13,820 nucleotides of DNA from a virus. Its lineage: Duplodnaviria > Heunggongvirae > Uroviricota > Caudoviricetes. This document shows, piece by piece, positions 1 through 8,904 of the stretch (positions within the stretch are counted from its first letter, which is position 1; each line of letters opens with the position of its first letter). The DNA lies in IMG/VR virus record IMGVR_UViG_3300034105_001678, positions 69,543-83,362 of that record, one strand, 5' to 3'. The notes below the pieces were generated by a model. It had not been told where the DNA came from. It made no database searches and worked only from the letters and a program-made list of their open reading frames with translations. The position numbers and the translations under genes are program-made.

Positions 1-1634
1 AAAAATTGTCGAACATCATTATTATCGGCCGAAGATGGTGTTTTATCTATTGGTTGGTAATTACCTTCTACCCAAAGTTTTTTGTAATTAAACTTAACAT
101 ATCCTAAATAAGGTATTGTTTTGTCAACAGGTTCCGTGATTGTTGTTAAATTTTTGACTCCATACATATATTCAAGTTTGGTGTTTATACCAATATTAGT
201 CCCTAAAATATTATCATTCATATATACTAACGTTCCACCACTTACCGAAATACCTCCAATATTATCAGTTCTAAAGACATTAGTCGATACCGTTGTTATA
301 TTGAATGCGTCGTTCAATTCTTTAAAATAAAAATCAAAATATAAATTGTTACGTTTATATCCAAATCTATATGTTTGTGCATTTTCTTGTTTTAAATTGG
401 GGTTTGGTAATTGTGTACCTCGACCATTTGTCATTGCTTGTTTAATCATCGGATAACTTGGTGCGTTTAGAGAATTATCATAACTTACAAATAATCCCTT
501 ATATCCGATAATTGTAGAATATTCTACACCATTGAATGGGTCTACATCGGTTATTTGTACATTTTTAAACCCAAAACTTGTATAGAGTTTTAATTTCCCA
601 AAATCATTTTTCCAACGGATACCTTGTTTTGTTGTTTTATAATCATCATTAAAAATACCGTTAACCAAACCATTTTCGTATCTAATTTTTTCGATGGTAT
701 TAGTTGAATATAAAGTAAATGAATATGGTAGATGATATTCTAAATTTGCGGTATACACATCTAAACGAGTGATTACTTTTTTAGTTCCATCCAAAATATT
801 TTCCGCATTATTTTGATAACCGAGATTTACATATAATCTATTAAAATACATTTTGTGATTAAGAAACAGATATCTTTGTAATTCCCACGTATAGACTGTC
901 GGTTTTTGATATCCAGCACTTCTTAAACCTCCATTCCATTTGTCGGTTCTTTCTAAATCATTTGATTGTGAAAATATAATAGTTGTTTTTTGTGATGGTG
1001 ACCAGATTGCTTCCGAAACTAATGCTTTTTGATTGTACCTACTGTGTTGAAACGTACTATCGGGTGATTTAACGTTACCATAATCGATATTGTTAAATCC
1101 AACACCAAATTTTTTACCTTTGTACGATACAGATTGACTAAACCCATCAACCCCACCTATATAATTTAGTCCAATATGTGATGATTGTACACCGACACTT
1201 CTTTCAATTGTACCTCCGATATTACCACCATCGGTAATTGAAATTAGTTTTGTAAATTCTAACGGAACCCACCCAAAATATTGATTTGGGCCGGTTCTAA
1301 ATAAACCATTATTAACTCTAATACCGTTAATGGATTGATCAACTTGGTTACCGGTAAACACACCGATATATGGACTTAATTGTCCAGGACTTGTTTCTTG
1401 TATACGTGCGGAATTTACGTATATTTTTGGATCTTTTATTACTTGTTGTATTTGATAATTGGTACCACTTACAACAACAACTTCTTTTAATTCTTTAGCA
1501 GTTGTGTCCCTTTGAACTTTTTTAGGTTGTTCTGAACCTTTCTGAACTGTACTACTACTATATTGACCATATGACAACGTTGTAGTAAACAATGATGCTA
1601 ACATTAGCGATAGCATTGTGATTGTTTTTCTCAT
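1..1634 (-). CDS. TonB-dependent outer-membrane receptor, compact, 3'-truncated by the window edge (>=544 aa); not in the supplied ORF track
   Basis: Manually translated from ATG at 1634 with no in-frame stop to the edge. Signal peptide MRKTITMLSLMLASLFTTTLSYG-Q; TonB-box-like DTTAKELKEVVVVSG (aa 43-57); plug QETSPGQLSPYIGVFTGNQVDQSINGIRVNNGLFRTGPNQY...IGG (to about aa 145); aromatic-rich amphipathic beta strands; barrel loop LNAPS...PNPNLKQE (aa 389-417), corresponding to the FRAP/NPNL motifs. Confidence 0.88.
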   Translation of the reverse strand, partial: MRKTITMLSLMLASLFTTTLSYGQYSSSTVQKGSEQPKKVQRDTTAKELKEVVVVSGTNYQIQQVIKDPKIYVNSARIQETSPGQLSPYIGVFTGNQVDQSINGIRVNNGLFRTGPNQYFGWVPLEFTKLISITDGGNIGGTIERSVGVQSSHIGLNYIGGVDGFSQSVSYKGKKFGVGFNNIDYGNVKSPDSTFQHSRYNQKALVSEAIWSPSQKTTIIFSQSNDLERTDKWNGGLRSAGYQKPTVYTWELQRYLFLNHKMYFNRLYVNLGYQNNAENILDGTKKVITRLDVYTANLEYHLPYSFTLYSTNTIEKIRYENGLVNGIFNDDYKTTKQGIRWKNDFGKLKLYTSFGFKNVQITDVDPFNGVEYSTIIGYKGLFVSYDNSLNAPSYPMIKQAMTNGRGTQLPNPNLKQENAQTYRFGYKRNNLYFDFYFKELNDAFNITTVSTNVFRTDNIGGISVSGGTLVYMNDNILGTNIGINTKLEYMYGVKNLTTITEPVDKTIPYLGYVKFNYKKLWVEGNYQPIDKTPSSADNNDVRQF

Positions 1635-1657
1635 TTGTTTTTTGTTTAAGAAAAGTT

Positions 1658-1674
1658 TATTATTGATAATAATA
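1658..1674. promoter_or_regulatory. 7-3-7 inverted repeat TATTATT-GAT-AATAATA upstream of the TBDR, abutting or overlapping a TATATT -10-like hexamer (minus strand, 1671-1676); possible metal-responsive (Fur-like) operator
   Basis: Perfect 7-bp arms containing the Fur half-site TGATAAT (1664-1670), in the 70-nt gap before the TBDR. The AT-rich context makes a chance match plausible. Confidence 0.3.
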
Positions 1675-1704
1675 TAAACAAAAATGACGATAAAACAAAG
1701 GAAT

Positions 1705-1914
1705 TTACTTTTTAAATCCTAGTTTTTCCCAAACAATTTTGAATGGACAAACACCTGTAAGTGCTGCTAAAGGTAATAAAATTGGGGGAGCCCAATGTAA
1801 CCAACTAACATTATCAAATCCCGCTAAACAATTAGCGATAAACACCACAACTCCTACTGATAGGAATGTCATTCTTGCTGATGGTGAGGCGTCACCTAAA
1901 TTAAAAATTCTCAT
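1705..1914 (-). CDS. Small membrane protein, DUF2892/YgaP-like (69 aa)
   Basis: MRIFNLGDASPSARMTFLSVGVVVFIANCLAGFDNVSWLHWAPPILLPLAALTGVCPFKIVWEKLGFKK: two hydrophobic segments ending in the TGxCP...LG signature. The start at 1914 is preferred over 1956 because it forms an ATGA overlap with the upstream stop. Confidence 0.65.
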   Translation of the reverse strand: MRIFNLGDASPSARMTFLSVGVVVFIANCLAGFDNVSWLHWAPPILLPLAALTGVCPFKIVWEKLGFKK

Positions 1915-2243
1915 ATTATATGTTTTAAAATAATCGTTAATGAAATCATTATCCACATTGTGTTAAAAACAATAAGGGTTGGGAGTGATTTCCTCATACT
2001 AGCCCAAATTAAAAGAGATGATGTTAAAAGAGTTAAAAAATGTAACCACCAAATTTCTTTACCAAACACCAAACCTGGTACAATGATTGCAGCTTTAGCC
2101 ATCCAAGCCGAACATTCAATTGTGTTGTAGTTTGTCCAATATTCTTTATCGGTGTACATTAAAATTTTATTCCAAATCTTTTTGTATCCAATTAGTCCAA
2201 ACAATAGACTAATAAATGTGAAATATGTTAAGATGTATATCAT
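1911..2243 (-). CDS. Hypothetical multi-pass membrane protein (110 aa; N-terminal TM plus about 3 TM)
   Basis: Hydrophobic segments separated by short charged loops (YWTNYNTIE, RKSLPTL). ATGA overlaps at both ends (2240-2243 and 1911-1914). Confidence 0.8.
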   Translation of the reverse strand: MIYILTYFTFISLLFGLIGYKKIWNKILMYTDKEYWTNYNTIECSAWMAKAAIIVPGLVFGKEIWWLHFLTLLTSSLLIWASMRKSLPTLIVFNTMWIMISLTIILKHII

Positions 2244-2410
2244 TTTATTTTATTTAAAAGTTCTTCTTTAAATTCTTTCTCAGGTTTTTGAAAGTGCATC
2301 CACATTGGTTTTTTACATTGGCAAGTGGATTCAGTTATTCTATTAACCAAATCATTATATTTCTCTTCTAAAAATTGAATACGTTCTTTTAATTCTTTAA
2401 TCTCGTCCAT
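2240..2410 (-). CDS. Small hypothetical protein (56 aa): N-terminal coiled coil, then CQCKKPMWMH
   Basis: ATG at 2410 overlaps the halogenase end by 14 nt, and its TGA overlaps the next ATG. The track start at 2452 is a TTG deep inside the halogenase. Confidence 0.65.
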   Translation of the reverse strand: MDEIKELKERIQFLEEKYNDLVNRITESTCQCKKPMWMHFQKPEKEFKEELLNKIK

Positions 2411-3914
2411 AGAATTTTTTAAGGTATTCATAGTGGTTAGGTAATTGGTCAACTAACAGTTCTGCTTCCTTGCGGATAATCTCCATTTTCATATCACAAA
2501 ACTTATCGTATTTTGGATTTAATTTAAATCTACTATTTTTATAGAACCCCATAGCCCATAACCATTGGAACCAATTAACTCCACCAAATATACGACCTCT
2601 AAACAATTGTTCAGGTGGTTGTATTGACATAATATGTAACTTTTGTTTTAATGTGTCAGGTACAAATGATTTCTCTTTTACGTCTTTCCAAAATTGAGTA
2701 TCGTTCCTATTACATAATAAATAATGTGCCTGAATGAAATCTCTAATATCAATCATCATATCGATGTTATCTTTATTGATTGCATCAATTGTTGATGATG
2801 TGTAGTTAAGATTATTTTTTTCTAATTCCGTTGCTAATGTTGCCATTATACCTTGAAACGTTGAAATACCTGTCGACTCCATTGGTTCCGCAAAACCACC
2901 AGCTAATCCACAAGCAACTACATTTTTAACTGCTACTTTTTCACGAGTACCAATTCTCATATTAATTTTTATAACCTTACCATCGTATCCTCCGTGAAAT
3001 TCTCTATATTCTTTTTCCGCATCCTCATCACTAATATGTTTTGATGAGTACACATACCCAGAACCTATTCTATCGAAGATGGGTGTTTTCCATAACCAAC
3101 CACTATTCATTGTGTAAAGTCTCGAATATGGTTCCATTTCTGATTTCTTATCTTTATATGGGATTGGTGCTGCAATGGCTTTATCACAAAATAATGAATC
3201 ACTAAATGAAATGAATGGTTCATTCATAACTGATTCAATTAATGCACCTTTGAACCCAGAACAATCAATAAACAAATCAGCCGCAAATTTTTGTTGATCC
3301 CATAATTTAATGTCTTGAATATAACCAAAGTCATTTAGTTTAACTTGTTTTAATTGACCCTCAACAAATTTAACACCATTAGGTATACATACTTTATTTT
3401 TAATAACTTCAGCAAATTTAATTGCGTCGAAATTATAACTGTAAACACTCTCAATGTCTTCGTAAGTTGGTAGATAAGTTAAATCATCATCAATTTTTGG
3501 ACAAAGATTATTATCACATAATTTAGAAGATATAAATAACTCATCTAATTTTTTTGAGTCGTCTTTATATTTCGATACAAGGTGTTGTAGTAAGTTTGTG
3601 TTTTTATTAACAAATAATTTAGATTCATTCTCAACACGAACCATATGTTCACCTGTACTAGACCAATTCATAAACTTACCTCCGTACTTATATGTTGCAG
3701 ACGATTCATTCATCCAATCTTCTTCTTTAAGTCCTATAAATTTCATATAAGAATGAAGACTAGCCGTTGAACTTTCACCAACACCAATTGCACCAATTTT
3801 ATTTGAGTGAATTACTGTGATGTCTAATTTTTCTTTAAATACTTTAGACAATAATGCTGCTGTCATTATGCCAGCTGTACCGCCACCAACGATTACAATT
3901 TTTTTAATTTCCAT
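2397..3914 (-). CDS. Flavin-dependent halogenase, tryptophan-halogenase (PrnA/RebH/VirX1-like) family (505 aa)
   Basis: GGGTAG (aa 10-15), IGVGES, catalytic-Lys motif ATYK76xGxKFxNW, FIDCSGF, WxWxIP-type GWLWKTP (aa 272-278), and FxxPxxSxG-type FAEPME346STG. Confidence 0.92.
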   Translation of the reverse strand: MEIKKIVIVGGGTAGIMTAALLSKVFKEKLDITVIHSNKIGAIGVGESSTASLHSYMKFIGLKEEDWMNESSATYKYGGKFMNWSSTGEHMVRVENESKLFVNKNTNLLQHLVSKYKDDSKKLDELFISSKLCDNNLCPKIDDDLTYLPTYEDIESVYSYNFDAIKFAEVIKNKVCIPNGVKFVEGQLKQVKLNDFGYIQDIKLWDQQKFAADLFIDCSGFKGALIESVMNEPFISFSDSLFCDKAIAAPIPYKDKKSEMEPYSRLYTMNSGWLWKTPIFDRIGSGYVYSSKHISDEDAEKEYREFHGGYDGKVIKINMRIGTREKVAVKNVVACGLAGGFAEPMESTGISTFQGIMATLATELEKNNLNYTSSTIDAINKDNIDMMIDIRDFIQAHYLLCNRNDTQFWKDVKEKSFVPDTLKQKLHIMSIQPPEQLFRGRIFGGVNWFQWLWAMGFYKNSRFKLNPKYDKFCDMKMEIIRKEAELLVDQLPNHYEYLKKFYGRD

Positions 3915-5366: not shown

Positions 5367-6953
5367 TTAAAATGATGCCCACATTCCTGAACCAGATGAT
5401 GCTGAGCGAGGTGCATCGGTAATTTGAACTATAGTGTCAATATTATAGTTAATTTTATCTGAGTGTGCGTTTTGACCATCGGTACAACTGTAACCACCCG
5501 CAAAATAACCCCAGTTCATTCCCATAAGTCCCGCGTGTTCGTTATTCCATCTTGTTTGTGAACCACTATTGATAGTCCAAGTTGATGTAGTGTTTACGAA
5601 TTTAAATATTCTATTTCCATCAGAAGTGGTACAATAAGTACCACCCCAATTACCCGCTAAATAAAATTTATCTTGTTTTGAATTAACACCCTTTTCCGCT
5701 CCGCTTCCTGGCATACCTAACGCTCCTGGATTACTATTTGTTGATACAGTTGTCCAAACTTCAGTTGAGTGTGGCATTTTATTGGTTACGGTTGTTGAAC
5801 CTCCATACGCTGAAGCAAATTGAAAACTATAGTCTTTATCAAACCAGCCAACAGCGTATTGTCCAACAGGTGCACCTGTTGTAGATGTCCAAGTTTCAGA
5901 TGCAAACAATAATATGTCCATATAAGTGGTACCCTTACCAACTTCAAATCCTTTAGTTCCATAAGATGCTAAAGTATTATATGTTCCACCTTGAGCTGAA
6001 GGTAATGCGGATGGTAAGTAACCAATACCGTGTTGACAAGATGATGGAGAACCTCCAGCACCGTTGGGTCTAGCGGCAATTGCTTGTACTGTATCGGTAG
6101 CAAAGTTTACTCTATCATTTGTTGTGTCACCATTTTGTACATTATGGTAAGTGTATCCATTTGACATTGCACTTGCCCATCCAGCATATTTAATTGCTTT
6201 GTTTAATGAAGATGCCATATATGACCAACTATCTGTTGCATATAATAATCTAAGAATGTTACTATATAAAGTACTGCCAATATAACCACCCCCAACGTAT
6301 CCCCTTACTAAATTTAAATCAAATCTGTATGTGTTTGTTAGAAAGGCAAAAACTGGTCTATCGTTATGTTTAAGAGTTGCTGCCTGTGATTCAATTCTAA
6401 GTGGTTGAACTTCGGTATCTCCAGCCTCACCCACAACAATACAAACAGCATCTGTTGATGCGATTGTTGTTGAAGATGAATTAGTGAAATTTGTCCAAGG
6501 TCCACCAGGTCCATCTGTAGCATACTGTAATGTTAAAGTGTTTCCACTTCTTTGCCATTTAAACCAATAACCTGTTGTAGCAGCACCACCACTACCGATA
6601 GGTGCGTGATATTGTCCAAAGAACGTTGCACTATATCCATTCGGAAATCCAGATGTGTTTAACGCTCCCGCGTAAGGTCCATTACCATCAGCTGAATATC
6701 CATTAAAATCTGTATGATTAACGGTTGGTCCATAAACAAATCCAGTACCTCTATAGTTGTGAGCCCAATATGCAATAATAATAAAATCTTCACCAGCTGC
6801 AAAGGTATAATCATATACAACTGTTGTATATCCACTACCAGAACTAAAAATTGTACTATTAGTGCCTGACAACGTTCCACGTATGTGATAAGTTGATGGT
6901 TGTCTCCAACCTCGTCCTTTGTCAAATAATTCTATATTACCTGTTACTTGCAT
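5367..6953 (-). CDS. Putative virion adhesin: ConA-like beta-sandwich (aa about 17-192) plus a six-bladed Kelch-like beta-propeller (aa about 218-528)
   Basis: YWFKWQRSGNTLTLQYATDGPGGPW resembles the LxRxGxxxxxxxSxDGxxW strand pair of ConA-like domains. The propeller has GYxGGGY...Y/FATD/ETW repeats. Paralogous to the next two genes. Confidence 0.7.
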   Translation of the reverse strand: MQVTGNIELFDKGRGWRQPSTYHIRGTLSGTNSTIFSSGSGYTTVVYDYTFAAGEDFIIIAYWAHNYRGTGFVYGPTVNHTDFNGYSADGNGPYAGALNTSGFPNGYSATFFGQYHAPIGSGGAATTGYWFKWQRSGNTLTLQYATDGPGGPWTNFTNSSSTTIASTDAVCIVVGEAGDTEVQPLRIESQAATLKHNDRPVFAFLTNTYRFDLNLVRGYVGGGYIGSTLYSNILRLLYATDSWSYMASSLNKAIKYAGWASAMSNGYTYHNVQNGDTTNDRVNFATDTVQAIAARPNGAGGSPSSCQHGIGYLPSALPSAQGGTYNTLASYGTKGFEVGKGTTYMDILLFASETWTSTTGAPVGQYAVGWFDKDYSFQFASAYGGSTTVTNKMPHSTEVWTTVSTNSNPGALGMPGSGAEKGVNSKQDKFYLAGNWGGTYCTTSDGNRIFKFVNTTSTWTINSGSQTRWNNEHAGLMGMNWGYFAGGYSCTDGQNAHSDKINYNIDTIVQITDAPRSASSGSGMWASF

Positions 6954-6962
6954 ATTCTATAA

Positions 6963-7928
6963 TTAATAACCACTCCACATTGGTGATCCTGAACTTAATG
7001 ACCTTGGTGCGTCTGGTATTTGTATAACCGTATCTGTTGGGTATTCCACCCTATCTGTGTGTGCATTTTGTGCTCCATTATATCCTCCCGCCCAATATCC
7101 GTGATTCTGACCCATAACTGGTGATTGTTCACCATTAGCTAAAGTTTGGTTATATGGATTTGTTTGATATGAATATGTTATGTGCATAAATTTCATAAAT
7201 GGATAGGTTACATTATCCCCAATAACATATGATTTAGCATCTTTTGTTGGTAGTCCTTTACCCCAAGCACCTAAAGATGTTGTATAGTTAGGTGAACAAG
7301 ATATAGATCCCCAAGTTTCAGTTGCGTATGGATATCTTCTAGTCACACCATCATTACCCAAACTAAATCCCGCTAATTTATCAAACCAAGCTTGTGTATA
7401 TGCGGTTCCAGTTGCAATACTACCATCACTAGCTGCCACCCAAGTATCTGCCGCGAAGTTTAATTTATCGTAGTTAGTACTATTTGCGTTTGCTAAGGTA
7501 TATGCTCTAGTCCCAAAAAAAGAACCGTCGGTGTTGTAACCAATACCGTGTTGTATTTGTGATGAACTATTAGCACTTGCGTAGTTTCTATTATTGATGT
7601 TAGTACATACTTCAGTACTAAATGCCATTTTTTGATTTATTACATCTCCACCGCACCAAAACATATATCCGTTTGTGTGTGAACTTGCCCAACCTCCATA
7701 ATATAAACTTGATCGTAACGATGCGTTTGCAGATGTTCCCCAAGCATCTGTTGCATTTTGTATTGTTGTTACAACTGACCAAACTGAAGAACCAATATAA
7801 CCACCACCGATATATCCTTTAGTTAAGGATAAACCATTCTTATAATCATCGGCAATGTATTCAAGGTTCAAAGCTGAACCATTGTATTTCATTGTTCCCG
7901 TATAATTTATTTGTCCGTATACTTTCAT
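6963..7928 (-). CDS. Six-bladed Kelch-like beta-propeller protein, paralog 2 (321 aa)
   Basis: About 43-50-aa repeats: GYIGGGY..NATDAW, GYMF..FSTEV, RAYTL..FAADTW, GFSL..YATETW, KSYVIG..ITYSY, GYWAGGY..YPTDT. The C-terminal PRSLSSGSPMW is a candidate velcro strand. Confidence 0.75.
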   Translation of the reverse strand: MKVYGQINYTGTMKYNGSALNLEYIADDYKNGLSLTKGYIGGGYIGSSVWSVVTTIQNATDAWGTSANASLRSSLYYGGWASSHTNGYMFWCGGDVINQKMAFSTEVCTNINNRNYASANSSSQIQHGIGYNTDGSFFGTRAYTLANANSTNYDKLNFAADTWVAASDGSIATGTAYTQAWFDKLAGFSLGNDGVTRRYPYATETWGSISCSPNYTTSLGAWGKGLPTKDAKSYVIGDNVTYPFMKFMHITYSYQTNPYNQTLANGEQSPVMGQNHGYWAGGYNGAQNAHTDRVEYPTDTVIQIPDAPRSLSSGSPMWSGY

Positions 7929-7932
7929 ATTA

Positions 7933-8904
7933 TTAAATTGGACTCCACATTGGAGATGCTGAACTTAATGATCTTGGCGCGTCCGCAATTTGAACGACCG
8001 TATCTGTATTGTGAAACACTTTGTCACTATGCGCATTTTGACTATAGGTACCTTGATATCCACCAGCTAAATAACCGTGATTCTGTCCCATAGTTCCTGC
8101 GTGTTCACAGTTGGGTTGTGTTTGACTTCCAAAATTTACAGTCCACGTTGATATACTATTTCTAAATTGGAATATTGTATTATTATACCAACCACTATTA
8201 CCCGCAACATACGCCTTACCTTTTTTAGTATTAAGACCTTTCTCTAATTGTCCTTGTGGCATACCCATAGTAATTGGTCCACTAACTGTTGAAAGTGTTG
8301 ACCAAGTTTCGGATGCAAATGGAAATATTTTAGTGTAATTATTTAACGATGCAAAGTTCCAACCATACTCTTTATCAAACCAACCGTAAGCGTGAGATGC
8401 TTGACCTATGTTACCATCCGACCTTGCGGTCATTGAATCTGTTGTAAAATCTAATTTATCATAACTAGTTGATGAGTTTCCACAAGTGTATGCATATCTT
8501 CCATATGGTACTCCCGTTGTTTCAAATCCAACACCTTGTTGAATCAATGATGGTGAATAACTACCATTTGTTCTTGCTGCGGTTGTTGTAACTGTCTCAT
8601 TGGCAAACATTACTTTATTAACTGTGGATGCATTTCCTTGAAAAACATAACCGAATGTATGTGCTGAAGCCCATCCTCCGTAATTGGTTGTGAATGTTAA
8701 TATATTAGATGAAGTTGCCCAAGCATCTGTCGCATAACTTAATAATGTTATGGTATTCCATACTGAAGCACCAACATAACCACCACCAATCAAACCACGA
8801 ATAAGAACTAATCCTAATTCGTAGTGACTATCTAAAACACTTTTAATATCTCTACCTTGTACTGTTAGATTTCCCGTAAAATTTACATCTCCGTTTACTT
8901 TCAT
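7933..8904 (-). CDS. Six-bladed Kelch-like beta-propeller protein, paralog 1 (323 aa)
   Basis: Same repeat architecture: GLIGGGY..YATDAW, FANETV, FTTDSM, FASETW, ISTW, GYLAGGY..HNTDT, ending in PRSLSSASPMW. Starts 1 nt after the fibre stop. Confidence 0.75.
   Translation of the reverse strand: MKVNGDVNFTGNLTVQGRDIKSVLDSHYELGLVLIRGLIGGGYVGASVWNTITLLSYATDAWATSSNILTFTTNYGGWASAHTFGYVFQGNASTVNKVMFANETVTTTAARTNGSYSPSLIQQGVGFETTGVPYGRYAYTCGNSSTSYDKLDFTTDSMTARSDGNIGQASHAYGWFDKEYGWNFASLNNYTKIFPFASETWSTLSTVSGPITMGMPQGQLEKGLNTKKGKAYVAGNSGWYNNTIFQFRNSISTWTVNFGSQTQPNCEHAGTMGQNHGYLAGGYQGTYSQNAHSDKVFHNTDTVVQIADAPRSLSSASPMWSPI

Follow-up and report, generated by a model that had tools for sequence, protein, structure and literature searches.

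The window analyzed here is a stretch of 13,820 nucleotides that covers bases 69543-83362 of the 83,362-bp linear IMG/VR virus record IMGVR_UViG_3300034105_001678. It begins within a minus-strand gene whose 600-residue product is, according to its predicted structure, a complete, BtuB-sized, compact and unusually bare TonB-dependent transporter. We consider it probable that this protein is a working nutrient importer powered by the TonB of the infected host and belonging to a compact, divergent and mostly viral family, a reading that builds on the fold, TonB box, family distribution and gene neighbourhoods shown here, and in which we infer expression, membrane insertion, TonB coupling and substrate. 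The identity of the transporter follows from phmmer and profile searches and from the predicted structure, with which the TonB box and the C-terminal Phe agree.

Identity of the transporter

A preliminary description of the window, made from its letters alone, had reported a 544-codon minus-strand open reading frame (ORF) with a signal peptide, a TonB-box-like segment, a plug and an NPNL loop, and had taken it for a TonB-dependent receptor carried by a phage. The ORF was found exactly as claimed (window 3..1634, 3' end open), all four elements are present in the sequence, and the assignment is backed by profile, fold, TonB box and terminal Phe. The gene leaves the window, not the contig, and extension along the contig, which had been proposed as a check of the C-terminus, gave a full gene of 600 codons (contig 69374-71176, minus strand) with the C-terminal end ...SRSLNLIVKYNF; the aromatic residue of the beta-signal is thus present in the 600-residue protein (...LNLIVKYNF, read from the contig beyond the window). 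The features of the gene are as follows:

Window 3..1634, minus strand: transporter gene, codons 1-544 of 600 (AlphaFold2 model, Foldseek, ESM Atlas)
Contig 69374-69544, left of the window, minus strand: last 56 codons and stop of the transporter gene
Window 1566..1634, minus strand: signal peptide, residues 1-23, predicted cleavage between SYG and Q (by inspection)
Window 1464..1493, minus strand: TonB box ELKEVVVVSG, residues 48-57 (family alignment)
Window 1110..1463, minus strand: plug domain, about residues 58-175, with the signature FRTGPNQYFGW at 112-122 (phmmer, DSSP of the model)
Window 3..1109, minus strand: barrel strands 1 to about 19 of 22, residues 176-544 (model and profile match; strands 20-22 lie outside the window)
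Window 393..404, minus strand: NPNL motif, residues 411-414 (PNPNL 410-414), at the end of the 26-residue predicted loop L6 (alignment to PhuR pNPNLkpE)

The leader of the protein, read by sequence inspection as MRKTITMLSLMLASLFTTTLSYG before the Q that follows the cleavage site, has a comparable hydrophobic counterpart at the start of every homologue in the family alignment. A TonB-box equivalent, (D/E)-x-hydrophobic-V/I-V/I-T/S-G/A/S, stands at the same alignment position in 31/31 family members, and the plug holds the majority of the family-invariant residues.

When the protein was searched with phmmer against 1.84 billion representative proteins, about 25 clusters of relatives of 565-605 amino acids (aa) were retrieved, after which the search reached ordinary receptors over residues 62-142 (E 1e-10 to 1e-4); these receptors have Plug and barrel by Pfam, and the alignment is plug to plug. 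Single-sequence phmmer of the transporter against the PDB gave no match, while a profile of 31 family members matched PhuR (E 6e-17), ShuA, OprC and Cir (about 2e-5) and also HasR, with the NPNL..E motif aligned and the match covering the barrels of PhuR, ShuA, OprC and Cir. Some family relatives are sub-threshold Plug matches, and one has a precomputed PF00593 match. The AlphaFold2 model built on the 31-member alignment had a predicted local distance difference test (pLDDT) score of 87 and a predicted template modelling score of 0.83. Foldseek placed it next to PhuR, BtuB, ChuA and ZnuD in the PDB (E about 1e-19, template modelling (TM) score 0.65-0.73), next to HxuC, BtuB and HemR among the Swiss-Prot models, and next to bacterial Plug+barrel clusters of the ESM Atlas (TM 0.81-0.86 over 540-569 residues, root mean square deviation 2.5-3.3 Å). 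By DSSP, the plug (about 58-175) lies inside the barrel of the predicted model, 22 strand segments run between residues 176 and 599, and five of the 11 predicted external loops are just 2-6 residues long.

The solved receptors BtuB (1nqg), ShuA (3fhh), ChuA (9dhe), PhuR (8the) and ZnuD (4rvw) share with the phage protein a TonB box, a plug, a 22-strand barrel and an aromatic residue at the C-terminus; in size the phage transporter resembles BtuB, and its F/NAP...NPNL...E motif is common to haem receptors. It differs from all of them in being phage-encoded, in escaping detection by Pfam, in sharing just 10-14% identity with them, in its five short predicted external loops, and in the plug signature that distinguishes its family, FRSGPNQY(F/Y)(S/G)W(I/V)P. 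Haem receptors have a conserved His between the FRAP and NPNL boxes, whereas the stretch between the NAP and NPNL motifs of the phage protein, LNAPSYPMIKQAMTNGRGTQLPNPNL, holds no His; with no family-invariant His either, membership of the haem/haemoglobin receptor subfamily was rejected. A SusC-like Bacteroidota transporter was likewise rejected, given 600 aa vs about 1000 and no match to the N-terminal carboxypeptidase-regulatory-like domain (PF13715/PF13620); the neighbours of the gene are DUF401 and small membrane proteins, whereas a SusD-like lipoprotein gene would be expected for the SusC type.

Distribution of the family and the phage that carries it

In IMG/VR, a motif-plus-tblastn scan detected family members on 30 contigs, which represent several phage lineages; across lineages the transporter remains intact at 46-81% identity. 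Most of the unlabelled metagenomic members examined (L003, L008, L009 and L047-L051) have phage-type surroundings, which include T4 gp13/gp14 neck proteins, DNA polymerase B, T4 RNA ligase, UvsX-like RecA, PIF1 and topoisomerase II; one exception is the copy P0035, which sits among two-component-system genes. The other is the receptor P0016 (49% identical) on an ENA contig of 528,804 bp and 63% GC (L002), which may belong to a cell or to a very large virus; there an FbpA-like binding protein precedes the receptor, a chemoreceptor follows it and many ankyrin-repeat proteins surround it.

The preliminary description had expected Bacteroidota or Planctomycetota receptors sharing the plug motif. 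None were found, as the motif scan of 185,579 species genomes matched four genomes, all from Sulfurimonas/Sulfuricurvum-type Campylobacterota (L010-L013), and a profile search of 300 further Campylobacteria genomes returned none at E<=1e-40. The four homologues are 25-29% identical to the phage protein, equal in length, and agree with it in TonB box, plug signature and invariant loop residues, but they differ in being chromosomal and sporadic, in standing behind a TonB2-type operon with phosphatase/GlpQ neighbours, and in having no DUF401 neighbour. In a maximum-likelihood tree the family formed one clade against ordinary receptors (Shimodaira-Hasegawa-like approximate likelihood ratio test 100) with two subclades: the subclade of the window's protein comprises 25 rows, 15 of them from viral contigs, and in the second the Campylobacterota copies are intermingled with those of T4-like phages (gp45, gp32, RNase H) and of further phages. 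The phage-only clade that the preliminary description had proposed to look for was rejected in its strict form, given the cellular Campylobacterota members within it and P0035 among two-component-system genes; judged by these sequences, it is predominantly, not exclusively, viral and has undergone repeated phage-cell exchange.

The viral origin of the contig follows from its being an IMG/VR record, from tail-fibre and other PHROG matches and from conserved synteny. It contains tail-fibre genes, thymidylate synthase, ATP-dependent DNA ligase, a DNA methyltransferase and many PHROG families, and the receptor is flanked by phage-lineage genes common to at least 15 related contigs of IMG/VR, the longest of 169 kb, in which the locus is internal; the gene lies inside conserved phage synteny and not at a prophage boundary. 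The check for viral hallmark genes, which had also been proposed, gave a divided answer: tail-fibre genes, PHROG families and synteny speak for a phage, but a terminase (PF17289) was not found in this fragment or in four sister fragments, and the T4 Gp23 major-capsid model gave an isolated match of 46 residues (E 4.5e-10, contig 60959-61096, plus strand, outside the window). This match sits in a 76-codon frame inside a glycan gene block, and similar short matches occur in two sister contigs. The record is rated about 25% complete, and the phage is a giant freshwater one with a genome of about 330 kb. The same stretch was seen in at least 19 lake-water metagenome runs; none of the runs listed for the region or the gene was an RNA run. 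Neither megablast of the window nor tblastn of the protein gave a match against 50,697 phage records (INPHARED), and no cultured phage there has the family. The host is most likely a member of the Bacteroidota, an assignment made from sequence because Shine-Dalgarno motifs are rare (a Shine-Dalgarno-like motif in just 8% of 137 contig ORFs), because the leaders are A-rich and G-poor in the manner of Bacteroidota translation starts (50-59% A and 4-9% G at positions -15 to -6), and because a glycosyltransferase near the locus is 46% identical to a protein of Flavobacterium phage immuto.

Gene neighbourhood, energy coupling and substrate

The stop codon TAA of the transporter gene is followed, after 1 nt, by the ATG of a gene for a 334-aa membrane protein of the DUF401/TIGR00529 family, a junction that resembles translational coupling. 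Receptor and DUF401 lie side by side in 22 of the fetched viral loci as well as in this contig and L047/L048, and either gene may come first. The model of the DUF401 protein (pLDDT 83) matched VcINDY (TM 0.73) and also tripartite ATP-independent periplasmic (TRAP) SiaQM, yeast Pho90, NaCT, CitH/CitM and DcuC; it is probably an elevator-type inner-membrane anion permease of the ion-transporter superfamily. DUF401 homologues in phages S-H25 (L044), S-CAM4 (L045) and RP12 (L046) show 35-39% identity and are annotated as hypothetical. The genes on the other side of the transporter, within the window, are:

Window 1635..1704, minus strand: 70-nt A/T-rich spacer upstream of the transporter gene
Window 1705..1956, minus strand: 83-aa small membrane protein, no relatives among the fetched loci
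Window 1911..2243, minus strand: 110-aa protein with 3-4 transmembrane helices
Window 2397..3914, minus strand: flavin-dependent Trp-halogenase family enzyme (PF04820 E 4e-105, phrog_2928)

The spacer (1635..1704) lacks a Shine-Dalgarno sequence and may possibly hold a promoter of the transporter gene's own. The 110-aa protein is 46-53% identical to a 116-aa protein directly before DUF401 in another phage lineage (L030/L032/L035) and, by analogy with the Q subunit of TRAP transporters, might be the small subunit of the short DUF401 permease. On its other flank the receptor has a gene of the Asp/Arg beta-hydroxylase family (Fe/2-oxoglutarate; PF05118 E 3e-12, contig 67805-68413), so that it lies between hydroxylase and halogenase. 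The halogenase recurs beside the transporter in L030/32/35 and L048, and the set of halogenase and Fe/2-oxoglutarate hydroxylase flanks the receptor-DUF401 pair in this contig, in L030/32/35, L047 and L048. In the closest sister lineages (L014:4136-6826, L015-L028), a radical S-adenosylmethionine (SAM) protein and a split methyltransferase-bearing protein stand in the place of the halogenase before the receptor, which implies that the enzyme slot next to the receptor is swappable. No SapC or JOR/JmjC gene was matched by Pfam among the flanking ORFs scanned.

Upstream, this strand also carries three small ORFs (two predicted membrane proteins and a 70-aa Cys-containing protein), the halogenase, several genes of PHROG 'unknown' families and a 1278-aa tail fibre with an S74 chaperone domain; the co-orientation with phage virion genes that had been noted earlier thus holds. 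Between tail fibre and halogenase (window 5367-8904, minus strand) lie two tandem paralogues (321 and 323 aa, phrog_1417), homologues of which recur in 17 related loci, and a 528-aa protein without a match in any library.

As to the energy for uptake, the homologues in Sulfurimonas-type genomes stand directly behind DUF3450-ExbB-ExbB-ExbD-TonB-TPR, a TonB2-type energising operon, and around the cellular copies of three separate branches there are PhoX, PhoD, a purple-acid-type phosphatase, a GlpQ-like gene and other receptors. These contexts link the family with TonB and with phosphate scavenging; PhoX, PhoD and the purple acid phosphatases all belong to the ferric-iron enzymes. Neither this contig nor any of five related viral records, of which one is rated complete, gave a match to TonB_C or MotA_ExbB, and a host TonB would therefore be needed. 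In one other branch, represented by an 83-kb phage-like Logan contig with a 48% identical copy, a 438-aa membrane protein, a TOBE-domain ATP-binding cassette (ABC) ATPase and a FutA1/FbpA-like binding protein directly precede the receptor (L003:6728-11767). The binding protein aligns with FutA1 at E 6e-48, and three of the Fe-binding Tyr are retained in it; together the genes resemble an entire ABC importer of the ferric type, carried by a phage. In a 2026 preprint, a phage ABC transporter for another substrate is claimed as the first complete one. The sister sequence P0016 likewise stands after its FbpA-like protein, and a ferritin-family gene (L051:11499-11999) lies 2 kb downstream of a receptor copy on a phage-like contig.

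The distribution of changes over the protein also bears on its role. Relative to a 79%-identical sister protein, differences amount to 9% in the plug, 17% in the predicted external loops, 24% in the strands, 41% in the periplasmic turns and 43% in the leader, and loops more conserved than strands argue against an arms-race surface decoy. Charged residues in the predicted loops L2, L9, L10 and L11 (R229, D231, K505, D537, D540, R542 and R579) are invariant down to 25% identity. On the predicted model, the conserved loops argue for a ligand site common to phage and cellular members.

Taken together, the transporter would be exported by the host Sec system during infection and inserted into the outer membrane by the beta-barrel assembly machinery, as its signal peptide and C-terminal Phe suggest. 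Its TonB box would be engaged by the host TonB-ExbB-ExbD, the plug would admit a specific small ligand to the periplasm, and the co-transcribed DUF401 protein would probably carry the ligand or its product across the inner membrane, a step for which the FutA/FbpA-type ABC importer would substitute in the phage branch of L003. The phage would gain a limiting nutrient for a genome of about 330 kb that replicates in lake water. Lakes are typically phosphorus-limited, and this, together with the phosphatase contexts of the cellular copies and the anion-permease partner, tentatively points to a phosphorus compound as substrate. A ferric chelate is about as likely, in view of the FutA/FbpA partner, of the ferritin gene, of nearby enzymes and phosphatases that depend on iron, and of iron/haem receptors as nearest structures (among solved proteins, receptors for haem, iron, B12 and zinc come closest). 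The remaining probability falls to another organic anion or to a tailored metabolite. Fur-box and Campylobacter jejuni pho-box patterns gave few, weak and mostly intragenic matches in the four Campylobacterota loci, which did not discriminate between control by iron and by phosphate.

Competing explanations and significance

Several observations weigh against the importer reading. Neither the 544-aa nor the 600-aa protein matched Pfam PF07715 (Plug) or PF00593 (TonB_dep_Rec_b-barrel) at E<=10, so that the search with these models that the preliminary description had suggested was negative even at this permissive threshold, and NCBIfam and PHROGs scans of the transporter ORF gave no match either; by sequence comparison, the lineage appears to be too divergent for curated family models. 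The loop assignments derive from a predicted model. DUF401 occurs without a receptor in the cultured Synechococcus phages S-H25, S-CAM4 and ACG-2014j and in the Ralstonia jumbo phages RP12/RP31, and in S-H25 and RP12 it adjoins a homologue of the Methyltransf_24-bearing protein that also neighbours DUF401 in uncultured phages. DUF401 may thus belong primarily to a methyltransferase module into which the receptor was inserted later, and since it occurs without the receptor, the pairing of the two suggests a dedicated two-membrane route without proving it. In the second subclade, many phage copies lack any transporter gene as a neighbour. The clues to the substrate conflict, those for iron coming from a single branch and those for phosphorus from relatives just 25-29% identical. 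The tail-fibre run is presumably expressed late, and an uptake gene in it would have little time to pay off.

Among the other explanations, the receptor could be the uptake arm of a tailoring-enzyme island, in which the enzymes make or modify a siderophore-like metabolite, DUF401 moves the metabolite or its precursor and the receptor re-imports it. Bacteria with a halogenase, a JOR/2-oxoglutarate dioxygenase and a TonB-class receptor (plus SapC) have been predicted to make a halogenated siderophore-like compound (PMC2938197), and here a Trp halogenase and an Asp/Arg beta-hydroxylase-family protein flank the receptor in a set that recurs in other phage lineages (L030/32/35, L047, L048), with radical SAM and Methyltransf_24 genes in sister lineages instead. 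We regard such an island as quite improbable, as the flanks showed neither a peptide synthetase nor SapC nor any other enzyme that would form a scaffold, many phage receptor copies have none of these enzymes nearby, the cellular relatives are found among phosphatases and not halogenases, and the enzymes may instead modify the adjacent tail-fibre proteins, as has been proposed for tail-collar proteins (PMC2938197).

TonB-dependent receptors are frequent phage and colicin receptors, and phage outer-membrane proteins that alter receptor display are known, such as the Lc porin of phage PA-2 and Llp of T5. A role other than import, in which the protein would act against rival phages or bacteriocins by serving as a decoy, by replacing the receptor or by draining host TonB, would accord with a gene that adjoins adsorption (tail-fibre) genes and with a conserved TonB box, which suffices for TonB titration. 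It is nevertheless very doubtful: the predicted loops and their charged residues are more conserved than the barrel wall, among close relatives and in the whole family including its cellular members, the tight permease junction and the ABC importer of L003 are left unexplained, and an added receptor leaves the host's own in place. Of the roles put forward earlier, nutrient uptake fits the permease junction, the ferric ABC importer, the cellular ExbB-ExbD-TonB operons and the loop conservation, while nothing specific was found in support of superinfection exclusion or competition for TonB. That the gene is a functionless, recently captured host gene, or host DNA at a prophage or misassembly boundary, is extremely improbable. 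The fragment does lack a terminase and a full major-capsid gene and comes from a record about 25% complete, but phage-lineage genes stand on both sides, the place is kept well inside at least 15 related contigs of up to 169 kb, the gene is intact at 46-81% identity with no close cellular donor in 185,579 species genomes, and the sequence recurs in at least 19 lake metagenome runs.

Beyond the importer reading itself, a wider scenario can be drawn, in which many phage lineages keep a self-contained two-membrane route (a minimal gate, DUF401 and possibly a small subunit) for one anionic ligand, a ferric chelate or a phosphorus compound, with a virus-evolved receptor and phage-derived cellular copies; as a whole we hold it to be unlikely.

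The supply of parts of an import route by a phage has precedents. Cyanophage pstS is a phage auxiliary nutrient-uptake gene for a periplasmic binding protein; the logic is the same, in that the phage supplies part of the host import route, but pstS acts in the periplasm, whereas here the phage brings the gate of the outer membrane and probably also a permease of the inner one. The marine megaphage Mar_Mega_1 encodes a putative SusC-type TonB-dependent receptor (UniProt A0A8D9FQQ5; PMC9723777), which was the only protein of this fold among the BFVD viral models, and TonB-dependent transporters have been reported in phages of ammonia oxidisers (bioRxiv 10.64898/2026.05.02.722434). These receptors are likewise phage-encoded and proposed as auxiliary uptake genes, but they are ordinary ones recognised by standard models (that of Mar_Mega_1 has 805 aa and 12% identity to the 600-aa protein), whereas the protein described here belongs to a separate, compact, largely viral family and has a DUF401 partner. 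Neighbourhoods of Trp halogenase, 2-oxoglutarate dioxygenase, TonB-class receptor and SapC in proteobacteria, and dioxygenase-halogenase arrays in cyanophage Syn9, were described by Iyer et al. 2010 (PMC2938197); halogenase, Fe/2-oxoglutarate hydroxylase and receptor are adjacent there as here, while in our locus no SapC/JmjC-type gene was seen, the receptor is of another subfamily, the genes come after tail-fibre genes and DUF401 is included. Phage TonB-dependent receptors are therefore already in the literature, and a phage-supplied importer is uncommon, not unprecedented; new with respect to the literature found are the compact, annotation-invisible and largely viral family, the recurrent DUF401 junction and the conservation of the surface loops.

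The phage uptake genes known so far mainly encode periplasmic or cytoplasmic components, and an energy-coupled outer-membrane gate supplied by a virus would mean that the cell surface is re-equipped for import during infection. Standard models miss the receptor family; dozens of viral contigs from lake and other waters carry it, and it is much more frequent in viruses than in cells. The identity of the imported ligand would tell whether iron or phosphorus limits the production of giant phages in lakes, and would give a first function for the DUF401 permeases, which are unannotated in cultured cyanophages too.

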